From positions 135,476 through 199,475 of IMG/VR virus record IMGVR_UViG_3300036985_002246: a stretch of 64,000 nucleotides of DNA; one strand, written 5' to 3'. A program made the translations under genes and the position numbers. Positions 1 to 23,338 of this stretch are shown in pieces (within the stretch, counting starts at the first letter, position 1; the number at the start of each line of letters is the position of its first letter). The stretch comes from a virus. The notes beneath the pieces were generated by a model that saw nothing but the letters and a program-made list of their open reading frames with translations, ran no database searches and was not told the DNA's origin.

Positions 1-579
1 AAGGTCGGCGAGGTGATCGACACCGACTCGACTGGGGCCACCGTGAAGTTCAAGTCGGGCGGCGAAGGCGTGTTCCCGGACGCTCAGAAGCTCCGTGGCG
101 TCGGGATCTACAAGTACACGCCCCCCTTCGTCATGCAGGGCTCCCCGGCGCTGGAAATGGTCTACCTCGCCGAAGAGAAGGAGATCCGCGACGAGCAGAA
201 GGTGATCGTCGATCGGTATCTCTCGAACGGGAAGACCCAGACCCGCTCCGGCAACTACTACTCTGGCTACGCCTTCACGGCCAGCGTGAACCAGGGCGGC
301 CAGGTCTACTTCTCGGTCTTCCCCCAGCAGCGCGTCGAGGTGGACCCGGAGTCGGAGAGCGGCTTCCTCCCCCGCAGCTTCAACCCGACGAAGGGCCAGG
401 TGCTCTACATGGGCCTGCTCGGCAAGCGTCCGGTCGGCTGGAAGGACCAGTGGGCGGAGCAGGAGAACGCTGGGCCGGAGGGTGCAATGCACTCGGCCTC
501 GCTCCGCGCCAAGGTCATTCGGCTCGCCCATGCGAAGCCTGAGCTTCGGGCAGCCCTCCTCCCGCTCCTGAAGAAGTGA
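1..579 (+). CDS. Hypothetical protein, 5'-truncated, ending in the LRAKVIRLAHAKPELRAALLPLLKK peptide
   Basis: Frame is open from base 1 (track start 13); C-terminal peptide matches the N-termini of the ORFs at 19048, 19472 and 23042. Confidence 0.75.
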   Translation, partial: KVGEVIDTDSTGATVKFKSGGEGVFPDAQKLRGVGIYKYTPPFVMQGSPALEMVYLAEEKEIRDEQKVIVDRYLSNGKTQTRSGNYYSGYAFTASVNQGGQVYFSVFPQQRVEVDPESESGFLPRSFNPTKGQVLYMGLLGKRPVGWKDQWAEQENAGPEGAMHSASLRAKVIRLAHAKPELRAALLPLLKK

Positions 580-614
580 GTCTCACGGCCCTCCAGGTTG
601 AGGGCTGGCCACGT

Positions 615-625
615 CGGTAGAGTCC
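615..625 (+). promoter_or_regulatory. GGTAGAGT intergenic motif followed by a hairpin
   Basis: Same octamer is intergenic at 7997, 34535 and 49408, with a variant at 6013. Confidence 0.45.
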
Positions 626-655
626 CCCGGAGGCACCAACCTCTGGAGGACTCGT

Positions 656-1852
656 ATGGCCGCTGAGACTGCTGAGATCCAATTCGCCACTGGGACGTTC
701 CAATCGTTCCGGGCTGTCGCGAAGATTCACCTTGGGAAGATCGCGACGGACGTTCGCGAGGGCGACATTATCCAGTTCGACGGTCAGACGATCAAGCTCG
801 GGGGCGTGGACCACTCCTACCCCGAGCTTCGAGCGGGTATCCGTGTCGGCTGGTTCGTCCCTGAGGCCGACAATATCTCGAACTACAAGCCCAAGCCCGC
901 CGACACCAACGTCCGGGCTGCCGTCGAGTCCAAGACCAAGGGGAAGAAGCAGGCGCTCCCCACAGTCTCCGACGACGAGAAGGACATGGGACCGGCCCGT
1001 GGGCGTCACGTCGTCAAGGCGGACGACCCCGACGAGGCCACTGAGGTCGCTTCCTTCAGCCGCGAAGTGAAGAACCAGGACGACCTGGAGCGCCCTGTCG
1101 GCCCCTCAATCCGGCGGACGGCAAGCGAGCAGAAGACCGACTCTGTCGGCAACGAGGACGCAAGGCCGGTTGGCAAGGTCCGGACCCCTGCGGTCATGAA
1201 GACCGTCGTGTCAGACGGCACCCAGGCTGCCCGTGAGGCAGCCAGGCTCGACAACGCTCCCCCTCCTCGTGCGATCCTCAACACGCCCAAGGGTGCGATC
1301 CATGCGGCGGAGGCTGAGAAGGTCGAGTCAATCCTCGACACTCTCAATCCTGAGGACCAGGCTCGTATCGTCCAGGAGCAGCGCAAGGCTCAGGCGCAGG
1401 CCGCTGCCAAGGCCGCTGCCAAGGTTGAGACAGCCGAAGAGGCTGCACCGAAGAAGGTCGAGCCCAAGGCTGCGAAGCCCGCCCAGGTCCCGGACGCGCC
1501 CCCTCCTATGACCCGTGAGCAGCAGATCGCCGCTGCCCGCCTCCTCCTGGCTGAGGAGGACGCTCGGGTCGCCGCAGCGGCAGCACCTCCCAAGGCTGCC
1601 GCCCCCAAGGCTGTGCCGCCCAAGAAGAAGGCACCGACCTCAATCGAGCAGATCGTGATCGAGGGCACCGACCTCGACCTGGGTCACGGCGTCAAGTGGG
1701 ACAAGACCCTCCACTGGCGGACCCGAGCGAAGATCGCTGCTGAGCAGTACGGGACCAATCAAGTGGTCCTGGAAGCTATCCGGGCAGTCGAGGCTCCGGC
1801 GGTGGTGGCTCTCATTGCAGAGCGCCTCGCTGCGATCCACCCGACCGCCTGA
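656..1852 (+). CDS. Hypothetical protein with Ala/Pro/Lys-rich linker between two globular ends
   Basis: ATG preceded by GGAGG; GC-rich codon usage; AAPK-type low complexity. Confidence 0.8.
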   Translation: MAAETAEIQFATGTFQSFRAVAKIHLGKIATDVREGDIIQFDGQTIKLGGVDHSYPELRAGIRVGWFVPEADNISNYKPKPADTNVRAAVESKTKGKKQALPTVSDDEKDMGPARGRHVVKADDPDEATEVASFSREVKNQDDLERPVGPSIRRTASEQKTDSVGNEDARPVGKVRTPAVMKTVVSDGTQAAREAARLDNAPPPRAILNTPKGAIHAAEAEKVESILDTLNPEDQARIVQEQRKAQAQAAAKAAAKVETAEEAAPKKVEPKAAKPAQVPDAPPPMTREQQIAAARLLLAEEDARVAAAAAPPKAAAPKAVPPKKKAPTSIEQIVIEGTDLDLGHGVKWDKTLHWRTRAKIAAEQYGTNQVVLEAIRAVEAPAVVALIAERLAAIHPTA

Positions 1853-1921
1853 CCGGGTCCGTCTCGGTTTCTCGCGGATAGGACGTGGTAGTACGAAGCA
1901 GCCTTCGCTGCCTGTACACCC

Positions 1922-2644
1922 ATGAACAGAACCAAAAGAGCCTCCAGTCAGGTCGCCTGGTCACTCCTCACTGAGGGTGTGACTCAGGCCCGCGTGGACA
2001 TTCACCGTCTGCGGCTCATGTTCGACCGAGCCCAGGTGCTGGTGGAGGAGTCCACGCAGCGGGACCACCTCTACTCGGTGGCGGGCGACATGATTGAGGG
2101 TCTTCCGGACACCCTCTCCTCCGTGGAGAGGGCGCTCGACCGGACCTCCTACGCGCTCGCTGTCATGGGTGAGGACTTCCTCCGCAGCAGGCTCACGTTC
2201 GACGACCGTGTCCGGGTGGACAGGGCCACGACGACCTCTCCCTTCTCGTCAAACCGGCAGAAGGAGTCGATCGAGGCCCGTGTGGCTCGTCGCTTCATTC
2301 AGGCTCAGAAGGGTGTGGCTCCGAGCGCGGAGCCCTACTTCTTCCACAACCCTGAGTTGCATGAGGTCCGGCAGTTCAGCCGGTCCAACGCCCCCTCGAA
2401 CATTCCTGCCGTCGCCGTCAACGCGGTGAAGGACCTGGACTCCTCTGAGCGGACGGTCGGTGAGGCCCGCCGAGAGGTCAAGAACGCCCCTCCGGTCCCG
2501 ACGAAGATCGACCAAATGCCCGGTGGCAAGGAGTTCTCCACGCTCAACCGCTACCTCGTGAGGACCGTGCAGCCTGGGGTGCGTGGTGTTCCGGAAGGCC
2601 ACGACGAGGTTCGCAAGCACCCCAAGCCGAAGGGGAACCTGTGA
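1922..2644 (+). CDS. Hypothetical protein, helical N-terminus, carries ARVARRF motif
   Basis: 240-aa ORF, ATGA overlap with the next gene. Confidence 0.75.
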   Translation: MNRTKRASSQVAWSLLTEGVTQARVDIHRLRLMFDRAQVLVEESTQRDHLYSVAGDMIEGLPDTLSSVERALDRTSYALAVMGEDFLRSRLTFDDRVRVDRATTTSPFSSNRQKESIEARVARRFIQAQKGVAPSAEPYFFHNPELHEVRQFSRSNAPSNIPAVAVNAVKDLDSSERTVGEARREVKNAPPVPTKIDQMPGGKEFSTLNRYLVRTVQPGVRGVPEGHDEVRKHPKPKGNL

Positions 2645-3219
2645 TGCCCCGGAACATTTCCAACCTCAACGGGTACACCTCCGAGCGGCAGCTTTCGATC
2701 TTCCACAAGGGCGACTCCATGCCCATGAAGATCGACCGGGCCATGGCGCGACATGGCTGGCCCGGAGGTACGTTCGTTCGCTGGGTGGACGACGGCACGG
2801 GCGACCCCTGCGTCACGATCGCTGACGGTCGCTACTGCGGGTTCACCCCGTGGGGCTCGAACGAGCCTGCGGACCAGTACACGTCGATCACACAGACGAA
2901 CCCGACGTACCGGTACATTACCCTGTTCTTCGGTGGCAACTTCGTCGCCACCACGACCTTCGAGACGCAGACCTACAAGGCCCGTCACGGCTTGACCCCG
3001 CCCACGCCTCTCGTCTACGCCCCACAGGACTTCCTGTACGTCAGCGAGAACGGGATCATTACCAATCAGGACGAGAGCAACCCGCTGGTGAACCCCGGTG
3101 GTCTGTTCCCTGACGGCACCCCAATCCTCGTGCCGTTCCTGTACTTCGGCCTGTGCGCTGTGCCCCCGAGCACCGCGACCGACGGCAAAATCTTCGTACA
3201 GACGAACGTCGGAGTCTGA
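2644..3219 (+). CDS. Hypothetical beta-rich protein, possibly virion-associated
   Basis: ATG overlaps the upstream TGA; typical codon usage. Confidence 0.7.
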   Translation: MPRNISNLNGYTSERQLSIFHKGDSMPMKIDRAMARHGWPGGTFVRWVDDGTGDPCVTIADGRYCGFTPWGSNEPADQYTSITQTNPTYRYITLFFGGNFVATTTFETQTYKARHGLTPPTPLVYAPQDFLYVSENGIITNQDESNPLVNPGGLFPDGTPILVPFLYFGLCAVPPSTATDGKIFVQTNVGV

Positions 3220-3221
3220 CC

Positions 3222-4814
3222 ATGAGCGGGCCGTCCCGACAGGCAGGACACGCTGCCCCGGCGGGCGAACTCTTCGGGGTTCGCACCGTCGTGGACGAGA
3301 AGCCTGCCAAGGGGATCGACGACCCTCTCGGCGACACGATCTACCACTCCCCAGGTGAGTCTCCGAAGTCTGACCGTGAGCGGGCCAAGCCGCAGCGGAC
3401 GGACACCAGGGAGAACCTCGACAAGGACCCGCCGGACCCGCCGGTCTTCAACACCCCCGGCCCCTCTGTTCCCATGCGGGACAGGGACACCCGGACGCCT
3501 GGCGACCCAGACCAGAGCGACAAGATCAAGGTCCGCACGCCCAGCGTCCCCGGTGAGGAGTACGGCCACCCCTACAAGGACAACGTCTACCCTCGCCGCA
3601 CCGACGGGGAGGGTGGTCCGAAGCCCTCACACACGGCCTCTGACTCCGACTTGAGTGAGGAGGAGGAGTTCCGGCTGGCTGGGCTCTTCCCCTCGTACTC
3701 GAAGCGGCAGCACAAGCAGCGGGGCCAGGCGAAGCGGTACTATCAGAAGTACTACCGGCGGCACAAGGGTCGGATCAAGACGAAGGCCAAGCGCCGGTAC
3801 AAGAAGGTCCGCAACAGTCCGAGCTTCAAGCGGCAGCGCAAGCTCCGGAACAACCCCAAGTACAAGAGCCGCTTTCGCAGGCTCCCGGCTGGGGGGGTTC
3901 ACTCGACGACTGAAATGGCGGACAGGCACCGCAAGCACGCCTCTGAGCCGCTCACCTTCTTCCACTCGGTCTTCGGGTGGGGGGACATTACGGACTTCTC
4001 TGAGGAGGGTGTGGTAGTCCACCTCGACGGCGAGGAGGAGGAGTGCCTCACGATCCCGATCTCCCTGTTCGTGAGGGGCGTCGTCTTCGACTCGGAGGAG
4101 GACACAGACTCCTTCTTCGACACTCTCGACGAGGTGTACGGAACACCTGACCCACGGGCCGTCGCTGCCACCTTCTACCGGGAGGTCTACACGCCCGGCT
4201 GGAACATGGACCCAGGGCAGGGGGCGCAGAATCTCGGCCTCCCAGGTCCGGAGAGCCCGATCGTGGACTCCCTCGAAGAGGAGCACGACGACCGGGCTCC
4301 AGGGCACAAGCTCGACATTCGCGAGTTCGACGGTGGCGGCGGCTCGGCCAAGGTCATTCCTTCGGGCCATGACTTCGCCAACAAGGAAGCCCACGGCCCC
4401 TCCGCCATTCGGGTCGCCAAGCGGCTCGCTGAAATGCTCGACGGCACCTCGAATGAGGTCCTTCAGCGGTCCACCTCGATCAAGCCGAAGGGGAAGCGGT
4501 TCGACCCGAAGAACTCAATGTTCACGTTCAGCGTTCCCGGCTCGGGTGGTGACTCCTACGTCGTGCGGATCAAGGCACTTCGCAAGGGCAACGTCACGAA
4601 GCTCTCGAAAATGGACCTGCTGGTGTCATGCTCGTGCGACTTCTGGCGGTGGCAGGGTCCAGAGCATTGGGCGAAGGTTGAGAGCTACCTCTACGGGAAG
4701 CCTCGTGGGACGGCCTCCAAGCCCGACATGAAGGACCCCTCCGGAGACCACCGTCTCTGCAAGCACGCAGCAGCCTGCCTTCGCTCGGTCAAGGGTTGGG
4801 AGCTTTCGAGGTAA
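3222..4814 (+). CDS. Multidomain protein with a very basic patch and a C-terminal SWIM-type zinc finger
   Basis: VSCSCDFW...HRLCKH fits the CxC...CxH SWIM signature; K/R-rich stretch around 3700-3890; ATG 3222 preferred over track start 3153. Confidence 0.75.
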   Translation: MSGPSRQAGHAAPAGELFGVRTVVDEKPAKGIDDPLGDTIYHSPGESPKSDRERAKPQRTDTRENLDKDPPDPPVFNTPGPSVPMRDRDTRTPGDPDQSDKIKVRTPSVPGEEYGHPYKDNVYPRRTDGEGGPKPSHTASDSDLSEEEEFRLAGLFPSYSKRQHKQRGQAKRYYQKYYRRHKGRIKTKAKRRYKKVRNSPSFKRQRKLRNNPKYKSRFRRLPAGGVHSTTEMADRHRKHASEPLTFFHSVFGWGDITDFSEEGVVVHLDGEEEECLTIPISLFVRGVVFDSEEDTDSFFDTLDEVYGTPDPRAVAATFYREVYTPGWNMDPGQGAQNLGLPGPESPIVDSLEEEHDDRAPGHKLDIREFDGGGGSAKVIPSGHDFANKEAHGPSAIRVAKRLAEMLDGTSNEVLQRSTSIKPKGKRFDPKNSMFTFSVPGSGGDSYVVRIKALRKGNVTKLSKMDLLVSCSCDFWRWQGPEHWAKVESYLYGKPRGTASKPDMKDPSGDHRLCKHAAACLRSVKGWELSR

Positions 4815-4822
4815 CGTCTCCC

Positions 4823-5206
4823 ATGCCCACCTACGACTACGAGTGCCCCAAGTGCGAGTCGAGCTTCGAGCGAGTGCTCCCGCTGGCTCAGTACCGAGAC
4901 CCCCAGACCTGTGAGACGTGCGGGGAGATTGCGACGAAGGTCATGTCCCCGGTCAACTTCGTGCTCAAGGGCGACAACTGGGCGTCGAAGGCCAATCGGA
5001 TCAGCGGGCAAATGGCTCAGAAGAACCGCAAGCTCGACGCCAAGCAGGCAGAGAGAAAGCGGTCCATGCCCGGCGTCACCCTCGTGCCCAACGTCAACGG
5101 GGAGCGCGTTGGCTCCTGGTCGGAAGCTCAGAAGCTCGCGGCCTCGAAGGGCAAGAACGCCGAGTCCTACGCTCCGAAGGTCCGCAAGGAACAGGCGAAG
5201 CAGTAG
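4823..5206 (+). CDS. FmdB-family zinc-ribbon protein
   Basis: N-terminus MPTYDYECPKC...CETCG is the MPxYxYxCxxC pattern; GAGG SD upstream. Confidence 0.8.
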   Translation: MPTYDYECPKCESSFERVLPLAQYRDPQTCETCGEIATKVMSPVNFVLKGDNWASKANRISGQMAQKNRKLDAKQAERKRSMPGVTLVPNVNGERVGSWSEAQKLAASKGKNAESYAPKVRKEQAKQ

Positions 5207-5240
5207 GTACGCAATAGATCCCCGGTAGGAGAACCTCTAC

Positions 5241-5999
5241 ATGACCCGCCAGCGAGACATTCCCTCCATTCAGTACCGGAGCCAGGGCCAGATCAATCTG
5301 ACCCTCCCGAAGGCTCCGGGGATCGACTTCTACGAGGTCCGTGGCGCGGCACGCCTGAATGACGCCTACGGGGCGGTCGCTGGCGTGCCTGGGTTCGGGG
5401 CGAACCCAATGTTCCGGATTCCCTGCGGAGGGGACTTCCGCTCGAAGGCGATCCAAATGAAGCGGCTCCCAGCCGTCGAGGAGTCGCAGCGAGGTCTGTC
5501 TCGGGCGGTCTATGACCCCGACGACTTCGCCACTCCGATCGTGGCAGGGGCGACCTACCTCCCGAGCGACGAGGTGACGGCGTACCTTCGTGTGGCCGCG
5601 TTCGACCGTGCGACCAACGCCTTCCTGCCCGAAGGTCCGATCCTGATTGTGCCACCCTACGACTTCTTCTCGACGAAGGAGCCGATCTTCACGCTCACAG
5701 GGGTTGCGCCCAATCTCGGTATCGGGGCGTTCCCCCCGAACCTCCCGGACACTCTGCCCCCGTCGGTCATGAACTTCCTGCTGCCCTCGTACAGCATGAC
5801 GCTCTCGATCGTGAACCTCGACCCTGTGGTCGGTGGGAAGCCTATCTTCGTGGGATTTCACCCAGGTATGCCTCCGACCGTCGTCATGCCTGGGGACGAG
5901 ATCGGGCTCACGGGCGCTGGTTCCCCTGAGTTCTTCATTGCCAGCCCGAACGGGAACCCCTGGTTCACAATCCGAGTCGCGGTCGCAAACAGCGCCTAA
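5241..5999 (+). CDS. Hypothetical protein, probable virion structural protein
   Basis: GGAG SD; Pro/beta-rich; structural context. Confidence 0.7.
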   Translation: MTRQRDIPSIQYRSQGQINLTLPKAPGIDFYEVRGAARLNDAYGAVAGVPGFGANPMFRIPCGGDFRSKAIQMKRLPAVEESQRGLSRAVYDPDDFATPIVAGATYLPSDEVTAYLRVAAFDRATNAFLPEGPILIVPPYDFFSTKEPIFTLTGVAPNLGIGAFPPNLPDTLPPSVMNFLLPSYSMTLSIVNLDPVVGGKPIFVGFHPGMPPTVVMPGDEIGLTGAGSPEFFIASPNGNPWFTIRVAVANSA

Positions 6000-6013
6000 C
6001 GCAGATTGGGTCC

Positions 6014-6041
6014 GGTAGAGGGTCTATCGTGGACCCTCTAC
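6014..6041 (+). terminator. Intergenic hairpin GTAGAGGGTC/GACCCTCTAC
   Basis: 10-bp perfect inverted repeat between the genes ending at 5999 and starting at 6113. Confidence 0.5.
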
Positions 6042-6112
6042 GGAGAGGGCTTCGGGCTCTCACATTTCACCCCCGTTCTCTGCGGCGGGTCCATTCTCAG
6101 GGAGACAAGACA

Positions 6113-6793
6113 ATGCCGTTCATCTGCAAGCGCCGTAGTGACATCCAGAATGGGATCCTCCAGGTCACTGACCTCTGGCCCAACGCCAGCCAGCGGAACC
6201 AGTCGATCGACCCGCAGCCCCAGGGTCCCCGCTACGTCAGCGCCCCGGTGACCAACACGGTCGTCCTGAGCAGCACGGGCGCGACCCAGCGGTACCTCGC
6301 GACGGCCCAGTCGGGCCTCTCGGCGTACCTCGTCGCCAACGTCGATGTGGCTGGCCCCGCGCTCACGCCCGCCCAGGCGGACGTGGCCTCGGCAGCCCTG
6401 ATCGCTGCCATGCAGGCAGGCGCGGTCCTCAACCTCGCGGCGATCAACGTGATCCTCAACGCGGCTGCGGCAGGTGCAACCCTCACGGGTGGTACCTCGA
6501 CCGGTGCGGTCATGGACGTGCTCCGGATCCTCTCGGGCGCGACCTACACAGTCCCGGCTGGCACGGTCGTTCAGGTCGTCGTCTCGACGTTCAACCCCCA
6601 GGCGACCCCTGCGGTGTGGAACGCGAACAACTTCGACTTCAACGCCTACCACGACATTCTCGTGAGCGACTCGTCGTTCTACATCTCGCTCGCTCAGGGC
6701 CAGATCAACGGCTTCTCGTCGGCTTCGTTCATGTACCTCGGGACGGCGGGCGCGGCGCTCGTCGTGTACGACAACACGGGTGCAGTCCTCTGA
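6113..6793 (+). CDS. Virion protein paralog 1 (MPFICKRRSDIQ...)
   Basis: GGAG SD at 6101, ATG 6113; strong similarity along its length to 6862..7911. Confidence 0.8.
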   Translation: MPFICKRRSDIQNGILQVTDLWPNASQRNQSIDPQPQGPRYVSAPVTNTVVLSSTGATQRYLATAQSGLSAYLVANVDVAGPALTPAQADVASAALIAAMQAGAVLNLAAINVILNAAAAGATLTGGTSTGAVMDVLRILSGATYTVPAGTVVQVVVSTFNPQATPAVWNANNFDFNAYHDILVSDSSFYISLAQGQINGFSSASFMYLGTAGAALVVYDNTGAVL

Positions 6794-6798
6794 GTCCT

Positions 6799-6823
6799 GG
6801 AGGGACCTGATTCTCAGGTCCCT
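6799..6823 (+). terminator. Hairpin AGGGACCTGA/TCAGGTCCCT between the tandem paralogs
   Basis: 10-bp perfect stem just after the stop at 6793. Confidence 0.5.
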
Positions 6824-6861
6824 TGCAGGTCTTGGTATCCTGCAACGCAAAGGGAAGTGGG

Positions 6862-7911
6862 ATGCCTTTTATCTGCCTCCGGCGCTCGGACATTCAGGAC
6901 GCGGTTCTTCAGATCACTGACCTCTGGCCCAACGCTTCGCAGCGGAACCAGAGCATTGATCCGCAGCCGCAGGGTCCACGCTACGTGGACGGGCCGAAGA
7001 CCTCTTCGGTGATCCTGAGCAGCACAGGTGCAACGCAGAGGTACCTCGCGCAAGCGCAGGTTGGCCTCGCCGCGTACCTGATCGCGAACGTGGAGGCCGC
7101 CAATCTGGCGGCCCTCACGCCCGCTCAGGCCGACACGATCGCTGCCTCCCTGATCGCCACAATGCGGGCGGGTGGGACGCTCAATCTCGCGGCGATCGAC
7201 GCGGCCCTCTCCACGACTGCCGGTGTGGCTGCGACCGCCACCCTGACGTTCGGTGGTGCCCCGGTCAACGGCGAGACCGTCACGATCAACGGCAAGGTCT
7301 ACACCTTCCGAGCGGTGATCAACGGGGCCTCTGTCAACGGTGACGTGCTGAACGACGCTCTGGCGGCCAACGCCATTGCGAACCTCGTCGCTGCGATCAA
7401 TCTCGGTGCGGGTTCCGGCGTCAAGTACGCCGCCGCCATGACGCTCCACCCGACGGTGTCCGCAGCCCCTGGGCTTCTTCCTGAGATCCTGGACGCGACG
7501 GCCAAGTTCCTGGGCGCAGCAGGCAACCTGCTCACGAACGCGACGAACGTCACGCTCGGCGTCTGGGCACCTGTCGGGTTCTTCGGTTCGGGCCTGGACG
7601 CCTCCCTGACCGGCGGTGCCTCGACCGGGACGGTCCTCGACGTGCTTCGGATCCTCGCTGGTGCGACCTACACGGTGCCCGCAGGGACCGTCATTCAGGT
7701 GCCCGTCTCGACGTTCAATCCTCAGCCGACCCCTGCGGCGTGGAACAGCGCGAACTTCTCGGACTTCAAGGACGTTCTGGTCTCGGACTCGTCGTTCTAC
7801 ACCAGCCTCGCGCAGGGTCAGATCAGCGGCTTCCTGTCGCCCCAGTTCAGCTACCGGGGCGTCACGAGCCCGGCGCTCACTGTGTACGACAACGCTGGCG
7901 CAGTTCTCTGA
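6862..7911 (+). CDS. Virion protein paralog 2 (MPFICLRRSDIQ...) with a ~123-aa inserted domain
   Basis: Aligns to 6113..6793 apart from an insertion at about 7225-7600. Confidence 0.85.
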   Translation: MPFICLRRSDIQDAVLQITDLWPNASQRNQSIDPQPQGPRYVDGPKTSSVILSSTGATQRYLAQAQVGLAAYLIANVEAANLAALTPAQADTIAASLIATMRAGGTLNLAAIDAALSTTAGVAATATLTFGGAPVNGETVTINGKVYTFRAVINGASVNGDVLNDALAANAIANLVAAINLGAGSGVKYAAAMTLHPTVSAAPGLLPEILDATAKFLGAAGNLLTNATNVTLGVWAPVGFFGSGLDASLTGGASTGTVLDVLRILAGATYTVPAGTVIQVPVSTFNPQPTPAAWNSANFSDFKDVLVSDSSFYTSLAQGQISGFLSPQFSYRGVTSPALTVYDNAGAVL

Positions 7912-7932
7912 CCTGAGCCCATGAGGTCCTCC

Positions 7933-7978
7933 CCCCGCCGCTTCGGCAGCGGGGTCGAAGCCGCCGAAAGGCGGCTTC
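7933..7978 (+). terminator. Tandem hairpins with UUCG and GAAA tetraloops
   Basis: CCCCGCCGC-TTCG-GCAGCGGGG then GAAGCCGCC-GAAA-GGCGGCTTC, followed by TGCTTT. Confidence 0.6.
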
Positions 7979-8035
7979 TGCTTTGGCCCTCCACGGCGGT
8001 AGAGTCCAACGGCTCACCCAGGGAAGGCCGAAGCA

Positions 8036-8266
8036 TTGGACGACGCTCATTACCACACAAGCGATCTGTACTACGCAGCGTTCCTGCGTGTGGCAGGCGT
8101 CAAGTTCATTGAAACGACCCGTGACGGCACCCGGACTATCTTCGTCTTCGAGAACGCTGAGGGCATTCGAGACCTGAAGCGCGAGTACTTCAATCGAACG
8201 GCCAAGGTAGGCGCACTCGACTACGCCGACCAGGTTCGCAGCATGAAGGCCATGATCCACCTGTAG
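8036..8266 (+). CDS. Small protein resembling DUF5659 (possible small DNA-binding fold)
   Basis: YHTSDLYYAAFL...IFVFE pattern; TTG start after GGGAAGG. Confidence 0.6.
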   Translation: MDDAHYHTSDLYYAAFLRVAGVKFIETTRDGTRTIFVFENAEGIRDLKREYFNRTAKVGALDYADQVRSMKAMIHL

Positions 8267-8305
8267 CGGGCCGCCTAGCTCCGCTATAGGCCGCTTCGGA
8301 TAGAG

Positions 8306-8674
8306 ATGGCTGTAGACGCTTACATCAACGAGCCGTTCATCTTCCAGACCCTCTTCGTGGATCCGGAAGGTGCGCCCGTTCTCGTCCTCAGCCCGAATAT
8401 CACAATCTTCCGCATGGACCCGCTGACCGGGGACGAGATCCCCATGGTGGTCGCAGGTCCCATGTCCCCTGTCTTCCCCCCGGAGCCAGGCCGGTTCGTC
8501 TTCCCGTATGTGATCCCGGCCACACTGCTCGACGGGGACACCCTCTACGCTGAGACACGGGCCACAGACCCGGTGACCCTCTACGTCACTATCTCGAACG
8601 AGACCCTCAACGTCAAGTCACGAGCCAGCAGCCCAACCGCCTGCGCTGGCCTCAACGCTAGGTTCGTGAAGTGA
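8306..8674 (+). CDS. Hypothetical Ig-like virion protein
   Basis: Beta-rich 122 aa, structural context. Confidence 0.65.
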   Translation: MAVDAYINEPFIFQTLFVDPEGAPVLVLSPNITIFRMDPLTGDEIPMVVAGPMSPVFPPEPGRFVFPYVIPATLLDGDTLYAETRATDPVTLYVTISNETLNVKSRASSPTACAGLNARFVK

Positions 8675-8728
8675 GCCAGGCGTCCGGACAGGACGTGACC
8701 GGCAGACTCCCGCCTCCGGGGGTCCGTC

Positions 8729-9106
8729 ATGGTTGAGTTCAACAAGATCATCACGATCCCCACCGGGGGCGGAAACCCCGCTGCCCCAGGTCCAGGGGAC
8801 TCTGTCGTCCTGAACATTGCCTCCCTCACGGTCGCGGGGCGGTACATTATCCGGGACTTCCAGCAGCCCCTGACAGGGCCGCTGAACGGCTTCAACACGG
8901 TCTTCACGACCGCGACCGCCTTCATTGCCTCAGGCCCCTCGAAGGAGTCGTTCTACCTGAACGGCGTGCTCCTTCTCCAAGGGGTCGGGAACGACTACAC
9001 GGTGTCAGAGTCCGGTGGGGTGGGCACTGGGTTCAACACCCTCACAATGGCCTTCGCCCCCAAGTCAGTGGACTGGCTGACGATCGACTACTGCCCGGCC
9101 CCGTAA
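8729..9106 (+). CDS. Virion protein with a phage Ig-like surface domain
   Basis: PLTGPLNGFNTVFT...FYLNG...NDYTV...APKSVDWLTIDY pattern common in phage surface proteins. Confidence 0.7.
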   Translation: MVEFNKIITIPTGGGNPAAPGPGDSVVLNIASLTVAGRYIIRDFQQPLTGPLNGFNTVFTTATAFIASGPSKESFYLNGVLLLQGVGNDYTVSESGGVGTGFNTLTMAFAPKSVDWLTIDYCPAP

Positions 9107-12483: not shown

Positions 12484-12484
12484 C

Positions 12485-15736: not shown

Positions 15737-15747
15737 GAGCTAGATCA

Positions 15748-16878
15748 GTGGCCGCCACGACCCCCAACACCGTGTTCGAGTACACCGTCGATTCCGACGG
15801 CATTTTCCCCAACAAGCGCGTGGACATTCCGCGCTTCACGGAGGAGATCCGCGCCAGCAGTATCTCCGTCGCGCTTCGTGGGATCACGATCGCCTCCGGC
15901 AACTGCGTGATCGAGTTCTCCGGCAACGCAAGCTCACCCCCAGGGCTGTCGTCGGCGGAGATTCTGGTCCTCGACACTCTGGTCACAAGCCACACAGGGG
16001 AGCCCCTCCCTGTGGGTGCTGCGACTGTGACCCTCTCCTCCCCGTCCAACCCGGAGAACAAGATCCCACTCTTTTCCCTCGCGGGACGCGAGGGCAGTGA
16101 GGTGATCTACGCCACGCACAACTACTGCGACAAGACCACCTGGTACTCGCAGAGCCTCCGGGCGGAGTCAGAGACCCTCGTGGACTCCGGGAATGGCCTC
16201 ACCTGGGGGAGCGCCCATACCCACTGGGTGGATATGTACTCCGGCAAGGTCATGGACGACGACGGGGTTCGCACAGACGTTTCCCACGGGTACTCCGTGG
16301 TCGTCACCGCGAACGGGGTCGAGAAGACCATGCGCGAGGTCTACGAGGACAACGGGGGTGACTACACCGTGGACTTCGCTGCGGGCACGGTCACGTTCTT
16401 CTCGGTCCCAACAGGCCCGGTGGTGGCGACCTACTCGTATGCGGACGGGTCTGCATGGATCCTCCGGGCCTCGCCCGGTAAGAACCTCGACGTTGAGTCC
16501 GCCGAGACGCAGTTCAGCACCGACGTGGAGATCACGGACTCGATCGTGTTCACCTTCCACGGGTATGCGGCTGTGTTCGCCCCAGCCGCCGTGGCCGCCA
16601 ACCTCTTGCAGCCCACCGACCTCGTGGAGATCGGGAGGGACACGTACAAGCGGTTCACCCAGATCATTGACAACGCGATCGGTTCCTTCCCTGTCGTCCC
16701 GGCCATTGGCGGTGCTGCCAGGGGCACACAGCACGCAGTCTACGGGTTCCCGTTCAGGTACGGGACGCTCCGACGGATCTACTCGGAGTACGGAATGGAA
16801 CTGCGGGTGTTCACGAAGCACGGTCGAGTGCTTCCCGGCGAGTACGCCACCACAACCTTCTACTGCGTGTCAAGGTGA
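15748..16878 (+). CDS. Putative virion protein with an Ig-like domain
   Basis: DYTVDFAAGTVTF motif; AGGAG SD; overlaps the patatin start. Confidence 0.65.
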   Translation: MAATTPNTVFEYTVDSDGIFPNKRVDIPRFTEEIRASSISVALRGITIASGNCVIEFSGNASSPPGLSSAEILVLDTLVTSHTGEPLPVGAATVTLSSPSNPENKIPLFSLAGREGSEVIYATHNYCDKTTWYSQSLRAESETLVDSGNGLTWGSAHTHWVDMYSGKVMDDDGVRTDVSHGYSVVVTANGVEKTMREVYEDNGGDYTVDFAAGTVTFFSVPTGPVVATYSYADGSAWILRASPGKNLDVESAETQFSTDVEITDSIVFTFHGYAAVFAPAAVAANLLQPTDLVEIGRDTYKRFTQIIDNAIGSFPVVPAIGGAARGTQHAVYGFPFRYGTLRRIYSEYGMELRVFTKHGRVLPGEYATTTFYCVSR

Positions 16879-17807
16879 AGGCCCTCTGTCTCAGTGGTGG
16901 GGGTGCTCGTGGTGCCTACCAGGTGGGCGCGATCAAGTACCTCATGGGTGAGCGTGGTGAGAACTACGACATTTTCACCGGCACCAGCGTCGGCGCTCTC
17001 AATGCGGCGTACCTTGCTCAGTTCCCTGTAGGGGAGGAGTTGGACGCGGCACACGGCCTGAGGGAACTGTGGCTCGGGCTTGACTCCTCGAAGGTCTGGC
17101 GGGAGTGGTACTGGGGGCTGCTGGGGCTCCTTCCAGTCGTTCTGCCGAAGTGGTTTGGTGGCAAGACCTCCGCCTACTCAACGGCTCCTCTGAGGGGATT
17201 GGTTGACCACCACCTCAGGCCGCGAGCGATCCTGTCTTCGGGGAAGAAGCTCCGAGTCGGGGCCGTGGACCTGGACTCAGGGGTCCGCAGGGTGTGGGAC
17301 GAGCAGGATCCTGCCCACCTACGGAAGGCTGTGCTCGCAAGCTCGTCCTTCCCGGTGTTCTTCGAGCCTGTCGAGATCAACGGACGCCTCTACACGGACG
17401 CCGGGGTGCGTGAGGTCAGCCCAATCGAGGACGCGATCAAGGCCGGGGCCAGGGAGATCCACCTGATCTCCACCAGACCCATGGAGGTCGTGGGTGCCTT
17501 CGACCGCAAGGGCGGCCTCTCGCTCGGGCGACGTGTGCTCGGGATCATGGAGTCTGAGATCGAGCGGTGGGACGTGAGGGCCGTCGAGTTGTACAACGCC
17601 CTCTACGAGGCGAGGCACCCGCTGGCCGTCGGCAAGTCCTACGTCACCCTGAAGGTGTTGCGCCCGGAGCAGGACCTGCTGGACAACGCCCTGGACTTCA
17701 ACACGACCGACATTATCGCCAACATGGGGCGCGGCTATGCCGACGCGAAGGCCATGAACTGGGGGTCCGGTCCTGCGGTACAGTCCGAGAGCAAGGTGCC
17801 CTCATGA
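16875..17807 (+). CDS. Patatin-like phospholipase
   Basis: SGGGARG oxyanion loop, GTSVG nucleophile elbow, DAG variant of the catalytic DGG. Confidence 0.92.
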   Translation: MKALCLSGGGARGAYQVGAIKYLMGERGENYDIFTGTSVGALNAAYLAQFPVGEELDAAHGLRELWLGLDSSKVWREWYWGLLGLLPVVLPKWFGGKTSAYSTAPLRGLVDHHLRPRAILSSGKKLRVGAVDLDSGVRRVWDEQDPAHLRKAVLASSSFPVFFEPVEINGRLYTDAGVREVSPIEDAIKAGAREIHLISTRPMEVVGAFDRKGGLSLGRRVLGIMESEIERWDVRAVELYNALYEARHPLAVGKSYVTLKVLRPEQDLLDNALDFNTTDIIANMGRGYADAKAMNWGSGPAVQSESKVPS

Positions 17808-18259
17808 GCGCAGAATCCAAGGTGCTTCAGGTCGGTCTAGGGGACGCCATGCGCCGTCTCCTCGACATTGAGATCCGCGTCCGCCACGGGATCACCACCC
17901 CCGAGGTGGCTGTCGAGCGGGATATGCTCCTCGAAGCCCTGAACCGGGTCGAGATCAATCTCGGGTTCGACTGTGACAGCGACGGGCTCCCCGACACCGT
18001 GGACCTGTTCAGGGAGACCTCTGAGACTTCCTGCTGCCGCCTCATTGACCTGCCAGGCGTGAAGCCCACGAAGAAGCCCACTGTGAAGAAGGCGGCACCT
18101 CCCCCGGCTCCCGTGCCACCTGCGGTCTCGCAGGAGGTGTCCTCCTCCCGTCTGGAGGAGCTTCCTTCGCTCACCACGGGTCCGCTCGGGACCCCAGCGG
18201 GTCCGGGCTTCTTCTCTCGAATGTTCAACCCGGCTGACAAGAAGGGTGGGAAGCAGTAG
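17804..18259 (+). CDS. Hypothetical protein with DCDSDG motif and Pro/Lys-rich tail
   Basis: ATGA overlap with patatin; track start 17567 overlaps patatin and is unlikely. Confidence 0.65.
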   Translation: MSAESKVLQVGLGDAMRRLLDIEIRVRHGITTPEVAVERDMLLEALNRVEINLGFDCDSDGLPDTVDLFRETSETSCCRLIDLPGVKPTKKPTVKKAAPPPAPVPPAVSQEVSSSRLEELPSLTTGPLGTPAGPGFFSRMFNPADKKGGKQ

Positions 18260-18567
18260 TGCCGACGCTCAACTTCCTGCTGCTCGCCTACGGGATCGCC
18301 TTCGGGGTCCAGAACAAGCTCCCGTTCCTTCGGGGCAAGCTGGCTGTCCTGGACGCACTGATCAAGTGTACCTACTGCTTGGGGTTCCACACGGGATACC
18401 TGGCTTGGGGTCTGTACTGGGTCATGGAGAGGCCGTCTCTTGGGACTGACGCCGGAAGCATTGCACTCTCGGTGGTCCTCGCCGTCGTGACGTGGGGGCT
18501 CTCTTCGGCGGCGTTCTCCTACGGGGTGGACACGGCGATCCGGTGGCTTGAATATCGCCCCCGGTAG
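18259..18567 (+). CDS. Small membrane protein with CxxC, DUF1360-like
   Basis: Hydrophobic helices flanking KCTYCLGFHTG. Confidence 0.65.
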   Translation: MPTLNFLLLAYGIAFGVQNKLPFLRGKLAVLDALIKCTYCLGFHTGYLAWGLYWVMERPSLGTDAGSIALSVVLAVVTWGLSSAAFSYGVDTAIRWLEYRPR

Positions 18568-18582
18568 GCGAGGGCTTCAAGC

Positions 18583-19014
18583 GTGCCGGTCGTACAACTT
18601 TTCCGACCTCAGAGTTCCGGGGACGTGATTCTTCCGGCGTCCATGCCGCCAGGGTATGTGCCCGGCTCGTACCTGAACATGGCCGTGAAGATCGTGGACG
18701 TGCTCGGGGTGCCCACGATCTACCCGTGCATGGCCCAGAAGAACACGGACAGCCCGCAATCGTTCTACGGGATCCTGAAGCAGGACCTCCCGACGGTGAT
18801 CGTCACGGCAGGCAGGGGGGCCGCCACGACTCCGCTCGTCGAGGGGGCGATCCCACTTGTGCCGGACAAGGACGTGTACCTGTCCTCGACCACGCCAGGG
18901 TATGTGACCCAGGCGACGCCCCAATCTTCAGGGACCGTCATGCTCCGGGTCGGGTTCGCCCTTGACGCTGCTCGGGTCATTCTGTCCGGTGACTTCCGGG
19001 TGGACTACTACTGA
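18583..19014 (+). CDS. Putative capsid decoration/cement-like protein
   Basis: DVYLSSTTPGYVTQATP...LRVGFA resembles DUF2190-like decoration folds. Confidence 0.5.
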   Translation: MPVVQLFRPQSSGDVILPASMPPGYVPGSYLNMAVKIVDVLGVPTIYPCMAQKNTDSPQSFYGILKQDLPTVIVTAGRGAATTPLVEGAIPLVPDKDVYLSSTTPGYVTQATPQSSGTVMLRVGFALDAARVILSGDFRVDYY

Positions 19015-19047
19015 GCCTATCAGCAGACCCTGCTAGGAGTCTCGTCC

Positions 19048-19431
19048 ATGTCCAATCTCCGCTCGAAGCTGATCCGCCTGGCCCACCAGAAGCCAGAGCT
19101 TCGGGCTGACTTGCTGCCGCTGCTCAAGTCGGCGAGACCCACGTTCGTGGAGGCCAAGCAGACGATCCTCGACTACCTGGGGGAGCACGGCTGGAAGCTC
19201 TCGGCCCCTGGACTCAAGGTCATGCACGCCACGTCCAAGGACGGGAAGGTGCGCCTCTGGTTCAAGGCACAGGCGGTCTACTTCACCTACAGCACGGGTA
19301 GACACGACTTCGGGGAGGCACACTCCCTTCACAACGACATTCGCTCAATGACCCCAGAGGCGTTCGCAAAGGACGCCGACGAGACCGCCAGGGCTGACCT
19401 CTGGGTGGAACGGGACGCTGAGCGGGGGTGA
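19048..19431 (+). CDS. Tag-bearing small protein (MSNLRSKLIRLAHQKPELRADLLPLLK + unrelated domain)
   Basis: AGGAG SD; shared N-terminal peptide. Confidence 0.8.
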   Translation: MSNLRSKLIRLAHQKPELRADLLPLLKSARPTFVEAKQTILDYLGEHGWKLSAPGLKVMHATSKDGKVRLWFKAQAVYFTYSTGRHDFGEAHSLHNDIRSMTPEAFAKDADETARADLWVERDAERG

Positions 19432-19471
19432 GCCACACCTCGTCTTTCACAACCAGTAGGGAGTCCTCTCA

Positions 19472-19930
19472 ATGTCCGACCGAACACTTCGAGCCAAGCT
19501 GATCCGCCTCGCCCACGCCAACCCCGAGCTTCGCGCTCAGATCCTCCCGCTCCTCAAGGACGCGGGCTGCGAGAAGCTGCCTGAGGGCGGCATGAGGGAC
19601 AACTGCGAGGAGAAGGTCGAGGAGGGCAAGGAGTCTGCCTCCAAGAAGGCCGGTGGCAACGACGTGATCGAGTACGTCCTCCCCATGGACGACATGGCCA
19701 AGCTCTACCACACGCTGAAGAAGCAGGACGAGCAGTCAGCCAAGCTCCTCATGGAGGTCTACAACGTCCTGCGGGATAGGCTCAAGCTCTCCGACGGCGA
19801 GAACGAGGCCATGAGCCGGGTCCGTGGCATGGTCACTCGTGGGCAGAACTGGGACGCGGCCCTCCTCCGCAACAACGTCTTCAAGGCCGCCCACTCGCTC
19901 GGCATGAAGCTGCCGAGCTTCATGTTCTGA
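19472..19930 (+). CDS. Tag-bearing small protein (MSDRTLRAKLIRLAHANPELRAQILPLLK + helical domain)
   Basis: GGGAG SD; shared N-terminal peptide. Confidence 0.8.
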   Translation: MSDRTLRAKLIRLAHANPELRAQILPLLKDAGCEKLPEGGMRDNCEEKVEEGKESASKKAGGNDVIEYVLPMDDMAKLYHTLKKQDEQSAKLLMEVYNVLRDRLKLSDGENEAMSRVRGMVTRGQNWDAALLRNNVFKAAHSLGMKLPSFMF

Positions 19931-19943
19931 GCGGAGACACTCG

Positions 19944-20840
19944 GTGGCAGTCGCATTTCTACCAGGGACAGTGCTCGGGCAGGGAGATCTCGACATTTTC
20001 CTGACGAACTCGTCGTCGATTGCGACCAACGCCTTCGAGATCACCTACGCGATCTACTGGGTCAGCAACGTCTTCCCGTTCCCCGAGATCCTGATCGGGT
20101 CGCCGAACCGGATCCCGCTGAACCCGAACGTCGGCGAGTACTACGCCTCGCTCCAGGTGCCGACCAACGCGAGTATCGGCACCTACCACATTCGGTGGAA
20201 CTTCAAGCAGTTCGCCGGGAGCCCAGTCCAGCAGGTCGTGCAGGAGTGGGCCGTGGTCACGCCTGGGACGACAACCTCCCCGATCTACACCCAGTGCGTC
20301 ACGTCAATGATCGGGAAGCTGCGGCTCCTCCTCCGCGACCAGAACCCCGACAAGTTCTACCACTTCCGCCCACCGGAGGCGGAAGGCAACATTGGCGCGT
20401 ACAACCAGGTCTTCGGTCAGATCTGGGAGGACGCTGAGCTTCTGGAGTACCTGGAGCGCGGGCTCGACTGGTGGAATATGTTCCCACCGACGACGCCTGA
20501 CCTGGACACCCTCGACAAGCTCTGCGCCGAGAAGTCCGTGTGGCGGACAGCCGTTCTGTGGGAGGCGATTGCTCACGCCTGCTTCGCTGTGTCACTCAAC
20601 TGGGTGGCGGACGAGTTCGACTACTCAATCGGTGGTGTTTCCCTCTCGATCGAGAAGTCCTCGAAGTACGAGTCACTCAAGCAGAACGCCGAGTCTCAGT
20701 TCGACAAGGCCACCGAAGCCAAGGCTCGGACCGTGAAGTTCATTCGCGGCTTGCAGCAGCCCAAGTACGGGATCGGGATAAGGTCGGCCTTTGGACCACA
20801 GGTAGGTCGGGGTGTGCTCAGTCCGAGGAATTTCCTCTAA
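19944..20840 (+). CDS. Head-tail adaptor / neck protein (T4 gp13-like) with N-terminal Ig-like domain
   Basis: Helical domain WEDAELLEYLERGLDWWN and FDYSIGGVSLSI motif typical of adaptors; position ahead of the tail module. Confidence 0.6.
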   Translation: MAVAFLPGTVLGQGDLDIFLTNSSSIATNAFEITYAIYWVSNVFPFPEILIGSPNRIPLNPNVGEYYASLQVPTNASIGTYHIRWNFKQFAGSPVQQVVQEWAVVTPGTTTSPIYTQCVTSMIGKLRLLLRDQNPDKFYHFRPPEAEGNIGAYNQVFGQIWEDAELLEYLERGLDWWNMFPPTTPDLDTLDKLCAEKSVWRTAVLWEAIAHACFAVSLNWVADEFDYSIGGVSLSIEKSSKYESLKQNAESQFDKATEAKARTVKFIRGLQQPKYGIGIRSAFGPQVGRGVLSPRNFL

Positions 20841-20958
20841 AACCTGAATCATTCCGGGTACCATCACTCCGTCATCAAGTACCTGAAGCGGTAACAGACA
20901 GCAAGAAAAGTACGGGTTAGGGGTAGACGTTCGGTTCTGGGTCAAGTAGACTCCAGGC

Positions 20959-22029
20959 ATGAAGTCCACGGCGACCGTCGAATGCCCGGCCTGCAAGAAG
21001 CTCATTCCGACCAAGGCGATCCCCAAACACACTTCGGGGTGTCACAGTTGGTCTACGGTCGTTGGGGTTCCCCCGTCCAAGTTCAACTGGGACGCCCACT
21101 GCAAGCGCGGCCCATACGCAGACGGGCTCATGGAGGGCACCAACTACGTTCGGTGCTTGGAGTGTGCGAAGAAGGGCTGGGACGCTCGTTTCAAGCGCAT
21201 GATGGACCACCTCAAGAAGGTCCACGGCTATGACGAGGCGACGTACCTTGCGAAGTACTCCAACGCGGCGGTGAGGATCGCCTCTACGGCCCAGAAGCGT
21301 GAGGGGACAGTCCAGGCTCGTTACGGGGTCGAGAACGTCTTTCAGGCCGACTCTGTGAAGCAGCAGAGCCGCAAGACAATGAGACAGCGGTACGGGGCCA
21401 GTCACCCACTTCAGGCTCTGAAGCCTCGCCAGAAGATGCTTGCAACCAATCTCACTCGCTACGGGTCAGCCAATCCGTTCGGCTCTGCTAAGATCAAAGC
21501 GAGGCTGAAGGCCACCAACATTCTCCGCTACGGGACCGAGTTCCCCAATCAGAACCGGGGGGTTATCGCTCGTCGTGTTGGGACGAACATGATCCGGTAC
21601 GGATCTCCCGTGCCACAGGGGTTTGGTAGGTCGGGAAAGACCTCCCTTGAGGATTGGGTAGACAAGCTCGCCCTAGCAGGCGTCGTCTACACCGGGGACC
21701 GTTCGTACTGGGTCCGGTGTACCGGACAGGACGGTTTTCCGAAGAACCGCAATCCCGACTTCGTGGTCTACTCGCCTGAGAACCTCGCCAGGGTGCTGGA
21801 AGGGGCACCTACCAATGAGGTCCGCACGAACAAGGTGATCGAGGTGCTGGGGGATTGGTGGCACCGGGAGGAGATCGTGGGCCTCCCCCGAGACGCCTAC
21901 GTTGCTTCCCGCATCGCGGAGTACGCCTCCGCCCGGATCTCCTGCCTCATCCTCTGGGAGTCCGAGGTCAAGAAGCAACCTGAGCTAGTCCTGGAGCGCC
22001 TCGCTGGGTTCCTCTCAGTAGGTCCGTGA
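20959..22029 (+). CDS. Free-standing homing-type endonuclease (PD-(D/E)XK / Vsr-like C-terminus, T-x-x-x-RYG repeats)
   Basis: CxxC fingers, five ~23-aa RYG repeats, NPDFVV...IEVLGDWWH...LILWE; atypical codon usage. Confidence 0.75.
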   Translation: MKSTATVECPACKKLIPTKAIPKHTSGCHSWSTVVGVPPSKFNWDAHCKRGPYADGLMEGTNYVRCLECAKKGWDARFKRMMDHLKKVHGYDEATYLAKYSNAAVRIASTAQKREGTVQARYGVENVFQADSVKQQSRKTMRQRYGASHPLQALKPRQKMLATNLTRYGSANPFGSAKIKARLKATNILRYGTEFPNQNRGVIARRVGTNMIRYGSPVPQGFGRSGKTSLEDWVDKLALAGVVYTGDRSYWVRCTGQDGFPKNRNPDFVVYSPENLARVLEGAPTNEVRTNKVIEVLGDWWHREEIVGLPRDAYVASRIAEYASARISCLILWESEVKKQPELVLERLAGFLSVGP

Positions 22030-22052
22030 GTTCTCTATAGGCCGGGGGTGAC

Positions 22053-23045
22053 ATGACCAATCTGCTTCGTCTGGTCGCAGTGCTGGGAGTGTCCCTCCTG
22101 TTCTCGTGCGGGCCGTCACCGGCTCCTCTTGTGGACGCAGGGTTCGACGCCGGGACGACCGACGGTGGGGTTCCTCCGACACGGCTCCGGGTGATCAACG
22201 GCTCCACCGAGACGCTGTGGATCTTCTACCAGGTCGGCTCGGGCGGCGGGTCGATCCCCACGGCTCACCAGGTCCAGTTGGCGGCTGGCGAGCACCTCGA
22301 CTACCCGATCCCCGACGAGGGCCTCGCGGCCACTCGGTTCTGGCCAGGCTACGGCTGTGACGACACCGGGAACAACTGCCAGATCGGGCAGTCAGGCGGC
22401 CCCGCAGACCAGGGCTTCACCTGCCCAAGCTACGGCTGCGCCCCGCCGATCGACTCGAAGTTCGAGGGCACCTTCGGCTGCCTTCCAAGCGTGCCGGTCG
22501 GCGACTGCCTGATCAACCCGTCGAGCCCGACGCATGACCCGCTCCCTGCCACGGACGGCTGGGACACGAGCATGGTTGACGGCTTCACGCTGCCCTTCCG
22601 GGTCGAGGTGTTCGGGGACTGTCCCGGCGGTCCGATCGCCAACACGATCGACTGCTCGGCGCTCCCCCTGTCCATGTGCCCGACCACGGAGGACCTCTCC
22701 ACGGACGGGGCATTCCCGGCGCTCATGTCGGAGAGCATGATGCTCACGAACCCCTCAAGCTCGCTGCCGGGTGGCTGCTACGCGGACTGCTCGAAGCTCA
22801 CCATGTCCCAGTGGTCTGGGCTCTCCTACGACCCCGCTTCGGCTGAGGCGCAAATGTACTGCTGCCCGACGCCGCCGATTGAGCCCCCGGCCTGCCGAGT
22901 CGGCCCAGTCGCGAGCACAGCCTACACCGACCTGGTTCACCGGACCTGCCCGCAGGTCTACGCCTACTCCTACGACGACGGGAGCGGGCTGTTCTCGTGC
23001 CCGGCGGGCGTCCACTACGAAGTCACCTTCTACGGACTACAATGA
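22053..23045 (+). CDS. Thaumatin-family (PR-5-like) lipoprotein
   Basis: Lipobox LLFSC; RFWPGYGC, DTSMVDGFTLP, CPQVYAYSYDD, YEVTFY; 16 Cys counted in the mature domain. Confidence 0.88.
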   Translation: MTNLLRLVAVLGVSLLFSCGPSPAPLVDAGFDAGTTDGGVPPTRLRVINGSTETLWIFYQVGSGGGSIPTAHQVQLAAGEHLDYPIPDEGLAATRFWPGYGCDDTGNNCQIGQSGGPADQGFTCPSYGCAPPIDSKFEGTFGCLPSVPVGDCLINPSSPTHDPLPATDGWDTSMVDGFTLPFRVEVFGDCPGGPIANTIDCSALPLSMCPTTEDLSTDGAFPALMSESMMLTNPSSSLPGGCYADCSKLTMSQWSGLSYDPASAEAQMYCCPTPPIEPPACRVGPVASTAYTDLVHRTCPQVYAYSYDDGSGLFSCPAGVHYEVTFYGLQ

Positions 23046-23338
23046 CCAATCTCCGCAGCAAACTGATCCGTCTCGCCCACTCGAATCCCGAGCTTCGGGC
23101 TGACCTCCTGCCGCTGCTCAAGACGGCTACCCCGCAGGAGTCCACCCCTGAGCAGCAGGCGGCTTCAGCAGAGGCCAAGCGTCTCTCGGAGATCGCGAAC
23201 GAGAAGGGGACGCGCTCCGCCCACGCCAAGGCGGCCTCTGCCCACAGGGCAGCCGCCGACCTCTACCCTTGGGGGCACCTCATGAAGAGCACACACAAGG
23301 GAATGGCGCAAATGCACAAGCAGAAGGCCGGGCGGTGA
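23042..23338 (+). CDS. Tag-bearing His/Ala-rich helical protein (MTNLRSKLIRLAHSNPELRADLLPLLK...)
   Basis: ATG 23042 overlaps the thaumatin stop; shared peptide. Confidence 0.8.
   Translation: MTNLRSKLIRLAHSNPELRADLLPLLKTATPQESTPEQQAASAEAKRLSEIANEKGTRSAHAKAASAHRAAADLYPWGHLMKSTHKGMAQMHKQKAGR

Follow-up and report, generated by a model that had tools for sequence, protein, structure and literature searches.

A portable 24-residue peptide tag on unrelated proteins of huge phages

The stretch of DNA analysed here, hereafter the window, is the final 64 kb (64,000 nucleotides) of the 199,475-base IMG/VR virus record IMGVR_UViG_3300036985_002246, with a G+C content of 63.7%. Four proteins encoded in this window, otherwise different from each other, carry one and the same short peptide tag with a core of 24 residues. 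The tag is a real, portable and previously undescribed element, and may dock the various proteins that carry it (their remaining parts are referred to as cargos) on a shared partner. The completeness of the record was estimated by CheckV as 45%, and the phage is therefore about 450 kb in size. Huge phages are mostly dark matter, and this single signature marks at least seven proteins in the present phage, eleven in the related phage LR745208 and 3,553 protein clusters in metagenomes.

Tag copies, cargos and selection

The original prediction, made on the window alone, proposed copies of about 25 residues on four unrelated proteins and at either terminus. By six-frame motif search and translation all four copies were located where they had been predicted, C-terminal in protein 'a' and N-terminal in proteins 'b', 'c' and 'd'. 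The genes and tags are as follows (positions in the window, all on the plus strand).

1-579 (+), 3' part of gene 'a' (272 residues), which starts 243 nt upstream of the window (record position 135233), just behind the major capsid and LAGLIDADG genes
502-576 (+), tag of 'a', its last 25 residues, LRAKVIRLAHAKPELRAALLPLLKK, followed by the stop codon (domain E 3e-14)
19048-19431 (+), gene 'b' (127 residues), N-terminal tag plus a domain with a WFKAQAVY motif
19057-19128 (+), tag of 'b', 24-residue core from residue 4 (motif search and profile)
19472-19930 (+), gene 'c' (152 residues), N-terminal tag, second portable motif and helical C-terminal part
19487-19558 (+), tag of 'c', from residue 6 (motif search and profile)
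19562-19651 (+), second portable motif of 30 residues (GCEKLPEGGMRDNCEEK...) in 'c', recurring with 90% identity inside the tagged protein encoded at record position 7991
23042-23338 (+), gene 'd' (98 residues, basic), its start overlapping the stop of a thaumatin-like gene (ATGA)
23051-23122 (+), tag of 'd', from residue 4 (motif search and profile)

A scan of the full record and of related phages with a hidden Markov model, which had been suggested as a check, extended the family. The profile built from the four window copies was run on the 3,647 six-frame open reading frames (ORFs) of the whole record, and recovered these four copies (E 1e-14 to 1e-17) together with three further N-terminal copies upstream (record positions 7991, 63916 and 64925) and a degenerate eighth copy (record 75591-76091), in which the first helix is retained (MSLRSKVIRLASS) and the second helix is gone. 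Beyond these eight copies, all other ORFs gave E > 0.4, excluding chance as the source of the tag copies. This genome thus contains at least seven tagged proteins in addition to the degenerate copy. All seven are basic, with isoelectric points (pI) of 8.5-10.3. Upstream of the tagged genes neither a common promoter nor shared DNA was found.

The cargos are unrelated to each other by BLASTP, except for the 30-residue motif common to 'c' and the 7991 protein. The cargo domain of 'b' is present without tag, and with other N-termini, in four other huge phages. Conversely, some proteins consist of nothing but two tags and a linker, including P0129 (63 residues) and a 103-residue protein of the related genome G002, and the linkers in multi-tag proteins are rich in Lys and Glu. 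The alternative that the peptide is part of one larger shared domain, named in the original prediction as a refutation, is not applicable. Judged from the sequences, the tag is a modular, position-independent unit on unrelated proteins.

The position of the tag may even change within one cargo family. An orthologue of 'a' (86% identical; L032/L099) likewise carries a C-terminal tag, while the cargo of 'a' aligned in two collinear BLASTP segments (E 2e-4 and 2e-3) with an N-terminally tagged 355-residue protein of G002; the same pair gave P 7e-4 by hhalign, against values of at least 0.03 for all of 20 shuffles. The family of the 'a' cargo is therefore probably tagged C-terminally here and N-terminally in G002. 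Among near relatives 86 of 105 copies are N-terminal, the tag starting 2-4 residues past Met in about 85%. The best 150 representatives of the metagenomic protein clusters described below, a set biased to multi-tag proteins, contain 172 internal, 122 N-terminal and 53 C-terminal copies.

When the longer tagged proteins were searched for names or Pfam domains, all proved to be unnamed. The cargos with Pfam matches are varied, including RelA_SpoT, pentapeptide repeats, WGR, zinc ribbons, TFIIS_M and DUFs, and one PHROG match is annotated as a DNA binding protein. The second portable motif, which includes two cysteines, is also located at about 8333-8425 of the record (L006), inside the 7991 protein, and a looser form of it was detected in 18 of 170 tag-bearing metagenomic proteins.

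For the analysis of selection, 105 ungapped copies from this record, LR745208 and IMG/VR contigs were aligned in codon register. The mean entropy at codon positions 1, 2 and 3 was 0.80, 0.37 and 1.68 bits, respectively: the third position is near random and the second is fixed, indicating that selection acts on the peptide rather than the DNA. Six residues (L1, R2, A9, P13, R16 and P21) are invariant and nine others (I6, R7, L8, H10, L15, L19, L20, L22 and L23) near-invariant. The same conclusion had been drawn in the original prediction from synonymous differences between the tags of 'b' and 'd', which share 92% identity in protein and 83% in DNA. In this genome the copies are 58-92% identical in protein with exact nucleotide runs of merely 7-25 nt, indicating that the tag paralogues are old, and positions with the same residue within one genome use the same codon in just 45% of cases. 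The tag is under protein-level selection. At the variable positions, the likeness of tags from the same genome (0.579) exceeds that of tags from different genomes (0.491), a value reached in 0 of 1000 permutations, which fits co-adaptation to one partner or to one another.

The sequence K-x-A, which had been noticed after the tag, holds for the three N-terminal window copies (KSA, KDA and KTA), and the endings in this genome as a whole are KSA, KDA, KTA, KQA, EKSA and DKEA. In the wider set, K24 is kept in 72 of 105 related copies and the following residue varies among E, S, T, Q, A and D, being E in about 19 of 105.

Distribution and predicted fold

Eleven copies of the tag were found in LR745208, a complete 485-kb genome of an uncultured phage with a capsid protein 93% identical to that of the present phage. 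A pattern scan of IMG/VR gave 71 tag loci on about 35 large contigs, and the tag profile, searched against 1.84 billion cluster representatives, hit 3,553 proteins at E <= 1e-3, of which 458 reached E <= 1e-10; a single protein contained as many as seven tag-matching stretches. With the strict pattern, only three contigs were hit in 185,579 species genomes, all being short or phage-like contigs of metagenome-assembled genomes. The tag is essentially confined to viral or phage-like sequence. No cultured phage carries it, and the uncultured assembly LR745208 is the sole GenBank phage record that does.

The tag has no match in Pfam-A, PHROGs or NCBIfam, and most cargos are likewise matchless. At E up to 1, no Pfam family covered the tag in the four window proteins or among 114 representatives, SAP, HeH and Rho_N included. 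The LRV repeat model matched one of the 114 tagged proteins; a protein carries one tag, or several with long linkers between them, and contiguous LRV- or HEAT-like arrays are not formed. A sequence search of the PDB gave a chance-level glutaredoxin match as the best hit (E 0.92), and the ESM Atlas gave no usable feature match for the tag. Literature searches with motif strings and with phrases for shared targeting signals yielded no relevant paper, and a huge-phage fold survey is silent on the tag.

From 70 aligned copies, AlphaFold predicted a helix at residues 3-13, a break at an N-P turn and a second helix at 15-27, with the predicted local distance difference test at 78-88 in blocks across the tag. 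According to this model the tag is a basic amphipathic two-helix hairpin, consisting of helix LRSKLIRLAH, turn x-N-P and helix ELRxxLLPLLK, with a net charge of about +3. Conserved hydrophobic residues occupy 10 of the 24 positions, too many for a lone hairpin to bury, which speaks for docking, with a partner protein or another copy of the tag as the target. In a Foldseek search the model matched only generic antiparallel helical hairpins (E > 3). For the two-tag protein P0119, an AlphaFold model of low confidence (predicted template modelling score, pTM, 0.38) aligned to compact four-helix bundles with a root-mean-square deviation of 2.3-3.7 A over 61-70 residues, covering both tags.

A possible docking partner and the alternatives

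As to the role of the tag, we infer, with a probability of about 35%, docking on one shared acidic partner, for which the prohead scaffold is the first candidate. Each copy would present the same surface, formed by the invariant R2 and R16, the conserved R7, the near-invariant H10 and the broad hydrophobic face, and a shared, conserved and probably acidic partner would bind that surface. Through docking, a fast-changing set of small accessory proteins would be brought together in a single assembly. As partner, the prohead core or scaffold is the best candidate, represented by an acidic protein of 501 residues whose gene directly follows that of the prohead protease. The tagged proteins would in that case travel as passengers inside the head, removal of the tag being not obligatory.

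The head module is located 5' of the window in the order large terminase, portal, 1,038-residue polyprotein, protease, 501-residue acidic protein, 272-residue protein, major capsid protein and LAGLIDADG gene, and is followed by the first tagged gene, 'a'. The head maturation protease was identified by a match to phrog_18299 (E 1e-12). The 501-residue protein has no family match and is a likely scaffolding protein; its pI of 4.5 contrasts with the pI of 8.5-10.3 of the tagged proteins. The two head genes of most concern here are as follows.

L094:14307-15812, 501-residue protein between prohead protease and capsid gene, Ala/Glu/Lys-rich, net charge -49, pI 4.5
L094:16737-17615, major capsid protein, 292 residues

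A few tagged genes are situated within the head operon, which, like this contrast in charge, favours a link to the head. In LR745208, a tagged gene of 134 residues is situated between a scaffold-like gene and the gene just before the capsid gene, and in both this phage and LR745208 a tagged gene, with unrelated cargos, is located just 3' of the capsid gene and its endonuclease insert. A conserved tagged slot after the capsid gene, apparent among loci chosen by their tags, was rejected, being present in only 4 of 21 capsid-chosen loci that show both flanking genes.

Several observations weigh against the prohead as the site of docking. When 80 loci were picked by the capsid gene regardless of tags (capsid identity >= 89%; best of 573 relatives), only about 11 had any tag inside 7 kb, and tags are as dense around the capsid gene (about 1 per 40 kb) as in the genome at large. 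In related contigs the neighbours of tagged genes scatter over the whole genome, many copies are internal or repeated, and the tagged genes share no promoter. Tag numbers also differ widely among relatives, G002 having three and G001 one, while G003 (375,691 bases) and G004 (312,136 bases), both 100% complete and with capsid proteins about 90% identical, have none. Both tag-free genomes encode the prohead protease, and at least G003 the scaffold-like gene, indicating that the tag is an add-on and not a part of head assembly. The absence of tags in close relatives and the lack of enrichment near head genes together indicate a lineage-specific accessory expansion over a conserved core.

A comparison of gene contents gave no sign of a dedicated receptor. 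Only three short ORFs are shared by the tagged LR745208 and G002 but lack a counterpart in the tag-free G003 and G004, in a test of low power in which only 127 LR745208 ORFs had any G002 match; all three look spurious, and the one examined is antisense to a conserved gene. If the partner is encoded by the phage, it is more likely the tag itself or one of the roughly 78 LR745208 reading frames that have counterparts in G002, G003 and G004. The original prediction of a portable amphipathic helix serving as a prohead address therefore stands as to a portable, modular and selected element, while the addressing to the prohead is unsupported, given the tag-free G003 and G004 and the lack of head-gene enrichment. 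The points against a virion address outweigh those for it, and virion loading is to be regarded as possible.

Known systems offer partial likenesses. The scaffolding protein of phage P22 ends in a basic, amphipathic helix-turn-helix of about 30 residues, which docks by charge on the coat protein and can bring foreign cargo into procapsids. The tag, as predicted, resembles it in being a basic amphipathic two-helix hairpin. In P22, however, the domain is present as one copy on one dedicated protein, whereas the tag forms a family on many proteins, and no sequence relation was found by the PDB search. Encapsulin cargo-loading peptides and the encapsulation peptides of bacterial microcompartments are short and portable, occur at either terminus on unrelated cargo and are joined by loose linkers, several copies being present on scaffold proteins. 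These features are shared with the tag, but the peptides serve cellular compartments, are shorter, form a single helix or an extended chain and are unrelated in sequence. By extension, the hairpin could be the address code of a large huge-phage clade, loading changing small effectors (anti-defence, takeover) into the capsid or another phage-built compartment via a conserved core protein, with multi-tag proteins as scaffolds and single-tag proteins as clients; this extension is tentative.

A precedent within phages is T4, whose internal proteins are variable and basic, have a capsid-targeting sequence in common at the N-terminus and are co-purified with the scaffold protein gp22 (PMC9026906). 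As in the T4 proteins IPI, IPII, IPIII and Alt (Mullaney and Black 1996; PMC9026906), a short peptide is attached here to unrelated, basic, fast-evolving small phage proteins, mostly N-terminally in close relatives, and a prohead protease and an acidic scaffold-like protein are encoded. The tag might accordingly be a propeptide of the T4 type, which attaches to the prohead core and is removed when the prohead protease cleaves behind K-x-A. Besides the T4 precedent, the encoded protease and the start of about 85% of near-relative copies 2-4 residues after Met, this is favoured by the ending L-K-E-A in 8 of the 11 LR745208 copies, which matches the L/I-x-E rule of T4 gp21. Nevertheless, neither the L/I-x-E protease site of T4 nor the A/S/G-x-E site of phiKZ-like phages follows the tag consistently: no more than about 19 of 105 copies have Glu at the putative P1 position, and the copies of this genome vary there among S, D, T, Q and E. 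The tag is also frequently C-terminal, internal or repeated, and thus not always at a free N-terminus; at 24-26 residues, and with a predicted hairpin fold, it is longer than the 10-residue sequence of T4 and unlike it in sequence, and tagged genes are not enriched near head genes. A T4-type propeptide is therefore unlikely, and the T4-like removal of the tag, to which the original prediction drew an analogy, finds no support in the cut residue or in the positions of the copies.

The main rival reading is self-pairing of the tag. This mode, in which two hairpins form a four-helix bundle and the tag acts as a general dimerisation or networking domain, would explain the commonness of two-tag proteins, some of them free of cargo, and the hydrophobic face in excess of what a lone hairpin needs. 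Single-tag proteins would then dimerise or join, and two-tag proteins would fold back or cross-link. The lack of a dedicated partner gene by phyletic pattern agrees with this mode, and the likeness of tags within one genome is compatible with mutual recognition. The P0119 model also packs both tags together in a form resembling a four-helix bundle, giving weak support, since the pTM is low and AlphaFold is prone to packing the helices of a single chain. The net charge of about +3 per hairpin disfavours pairs, and promiscuous pairing among a dozen unrelated proteins should favour divergence rather than near-identity; taken together, self-pairing appears less likely than docking on a shared partner. 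It would make the tag a compact natural dimerisation module if this were all it does. A tether localising the cargo to nucleic acid, in the manner of SAP or HeH domains, or to the inner membrane is suggested by the invariant arginines, the net positive charge, the Lys/Glu-rich linkers of multi-tag proteins and some nucleic-acid-related cargos (WGR, zinc ribbons, TFIIS_M and the PHROG DNA binding protein). We consider it rather improbable: neither SAP nor HeH nor any other Pfam model matches at E up to 1, and generic binding to DNA or lipid does not need six invariant and about ten near-invariant residues, the two invariant prolines among them. Finally, a mobile or recombination cassette at the DNA level, with translation incidental, might be thought of from the slot after the capsid gene, which holds different tagged genes in different phages, and from tandem arrays of tagged genes, four of them consecutive in the IMG/VR locus L023. 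Such a cassette is contradicted by the near-random third codon position (1.68 bits) and by shared nucleotide runs of at most 7-25 nt without shared upstream DNA, and is hardly conceivable.

If, as we prefer, the tag docks on one partner, the identity of this partner would give the location and a shared pathway for thousands of unannotated proteins, and the tag itself would be a small natural handle to load foreign proteins onto a phage assembly.

Capsid conservation and neighbouring genes

The capsid protein is 89-100% identical in the best 80 of 573 IMG/VR relatives (loci L106-L185), and the genomes with this capsid protein span 38-64% G+C and 290-618 kb. From these comparisons, the conservation of the capsid protein across genomes so divergent appears unusually strong.

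A third motif, F-P-T-x-E-A-L-K-K-Y-L-K-E-H-P-x-A-D-x-x-x-H-T-V, lies about 14 residues behind the tag, at constant spacing, in 13 representatives as well as in IMG/VR loci L023, L045 and L079. In the present phage it occurs without tag within the 1,038-residue polyprotein of the head module (L094 about 10045, residue about 548). A tagged orthologue of this polyprotein was considered as a candidate and rejected, the LR745208 orthologue being devoid of the whole C-terminal half.

Homing endonuclease genes are found near both the capsid gene and the tagged genes. The LAGLIDADG gene (L094:17763-18686) lies directly 3' of the capsid gene, and the equivalent site of LR745208 (about 392528-396214) is occupied by an ORF of 1,229 residues with two LAGLIDADG-like segments. 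Within the window, the gene at 19944-20840 has neither a Pfam nor a PHROG match. The gene at 20959-22029, located between the tagged pair 'b' and 'c' and the thaumatin-like gene, matches DUF7487 and PHROG homing-endonuclease families (E 2e-13). Further downstream, the gene at 34918-36291 resembles a family of virion structural proteins only weakly (E 4e-4).

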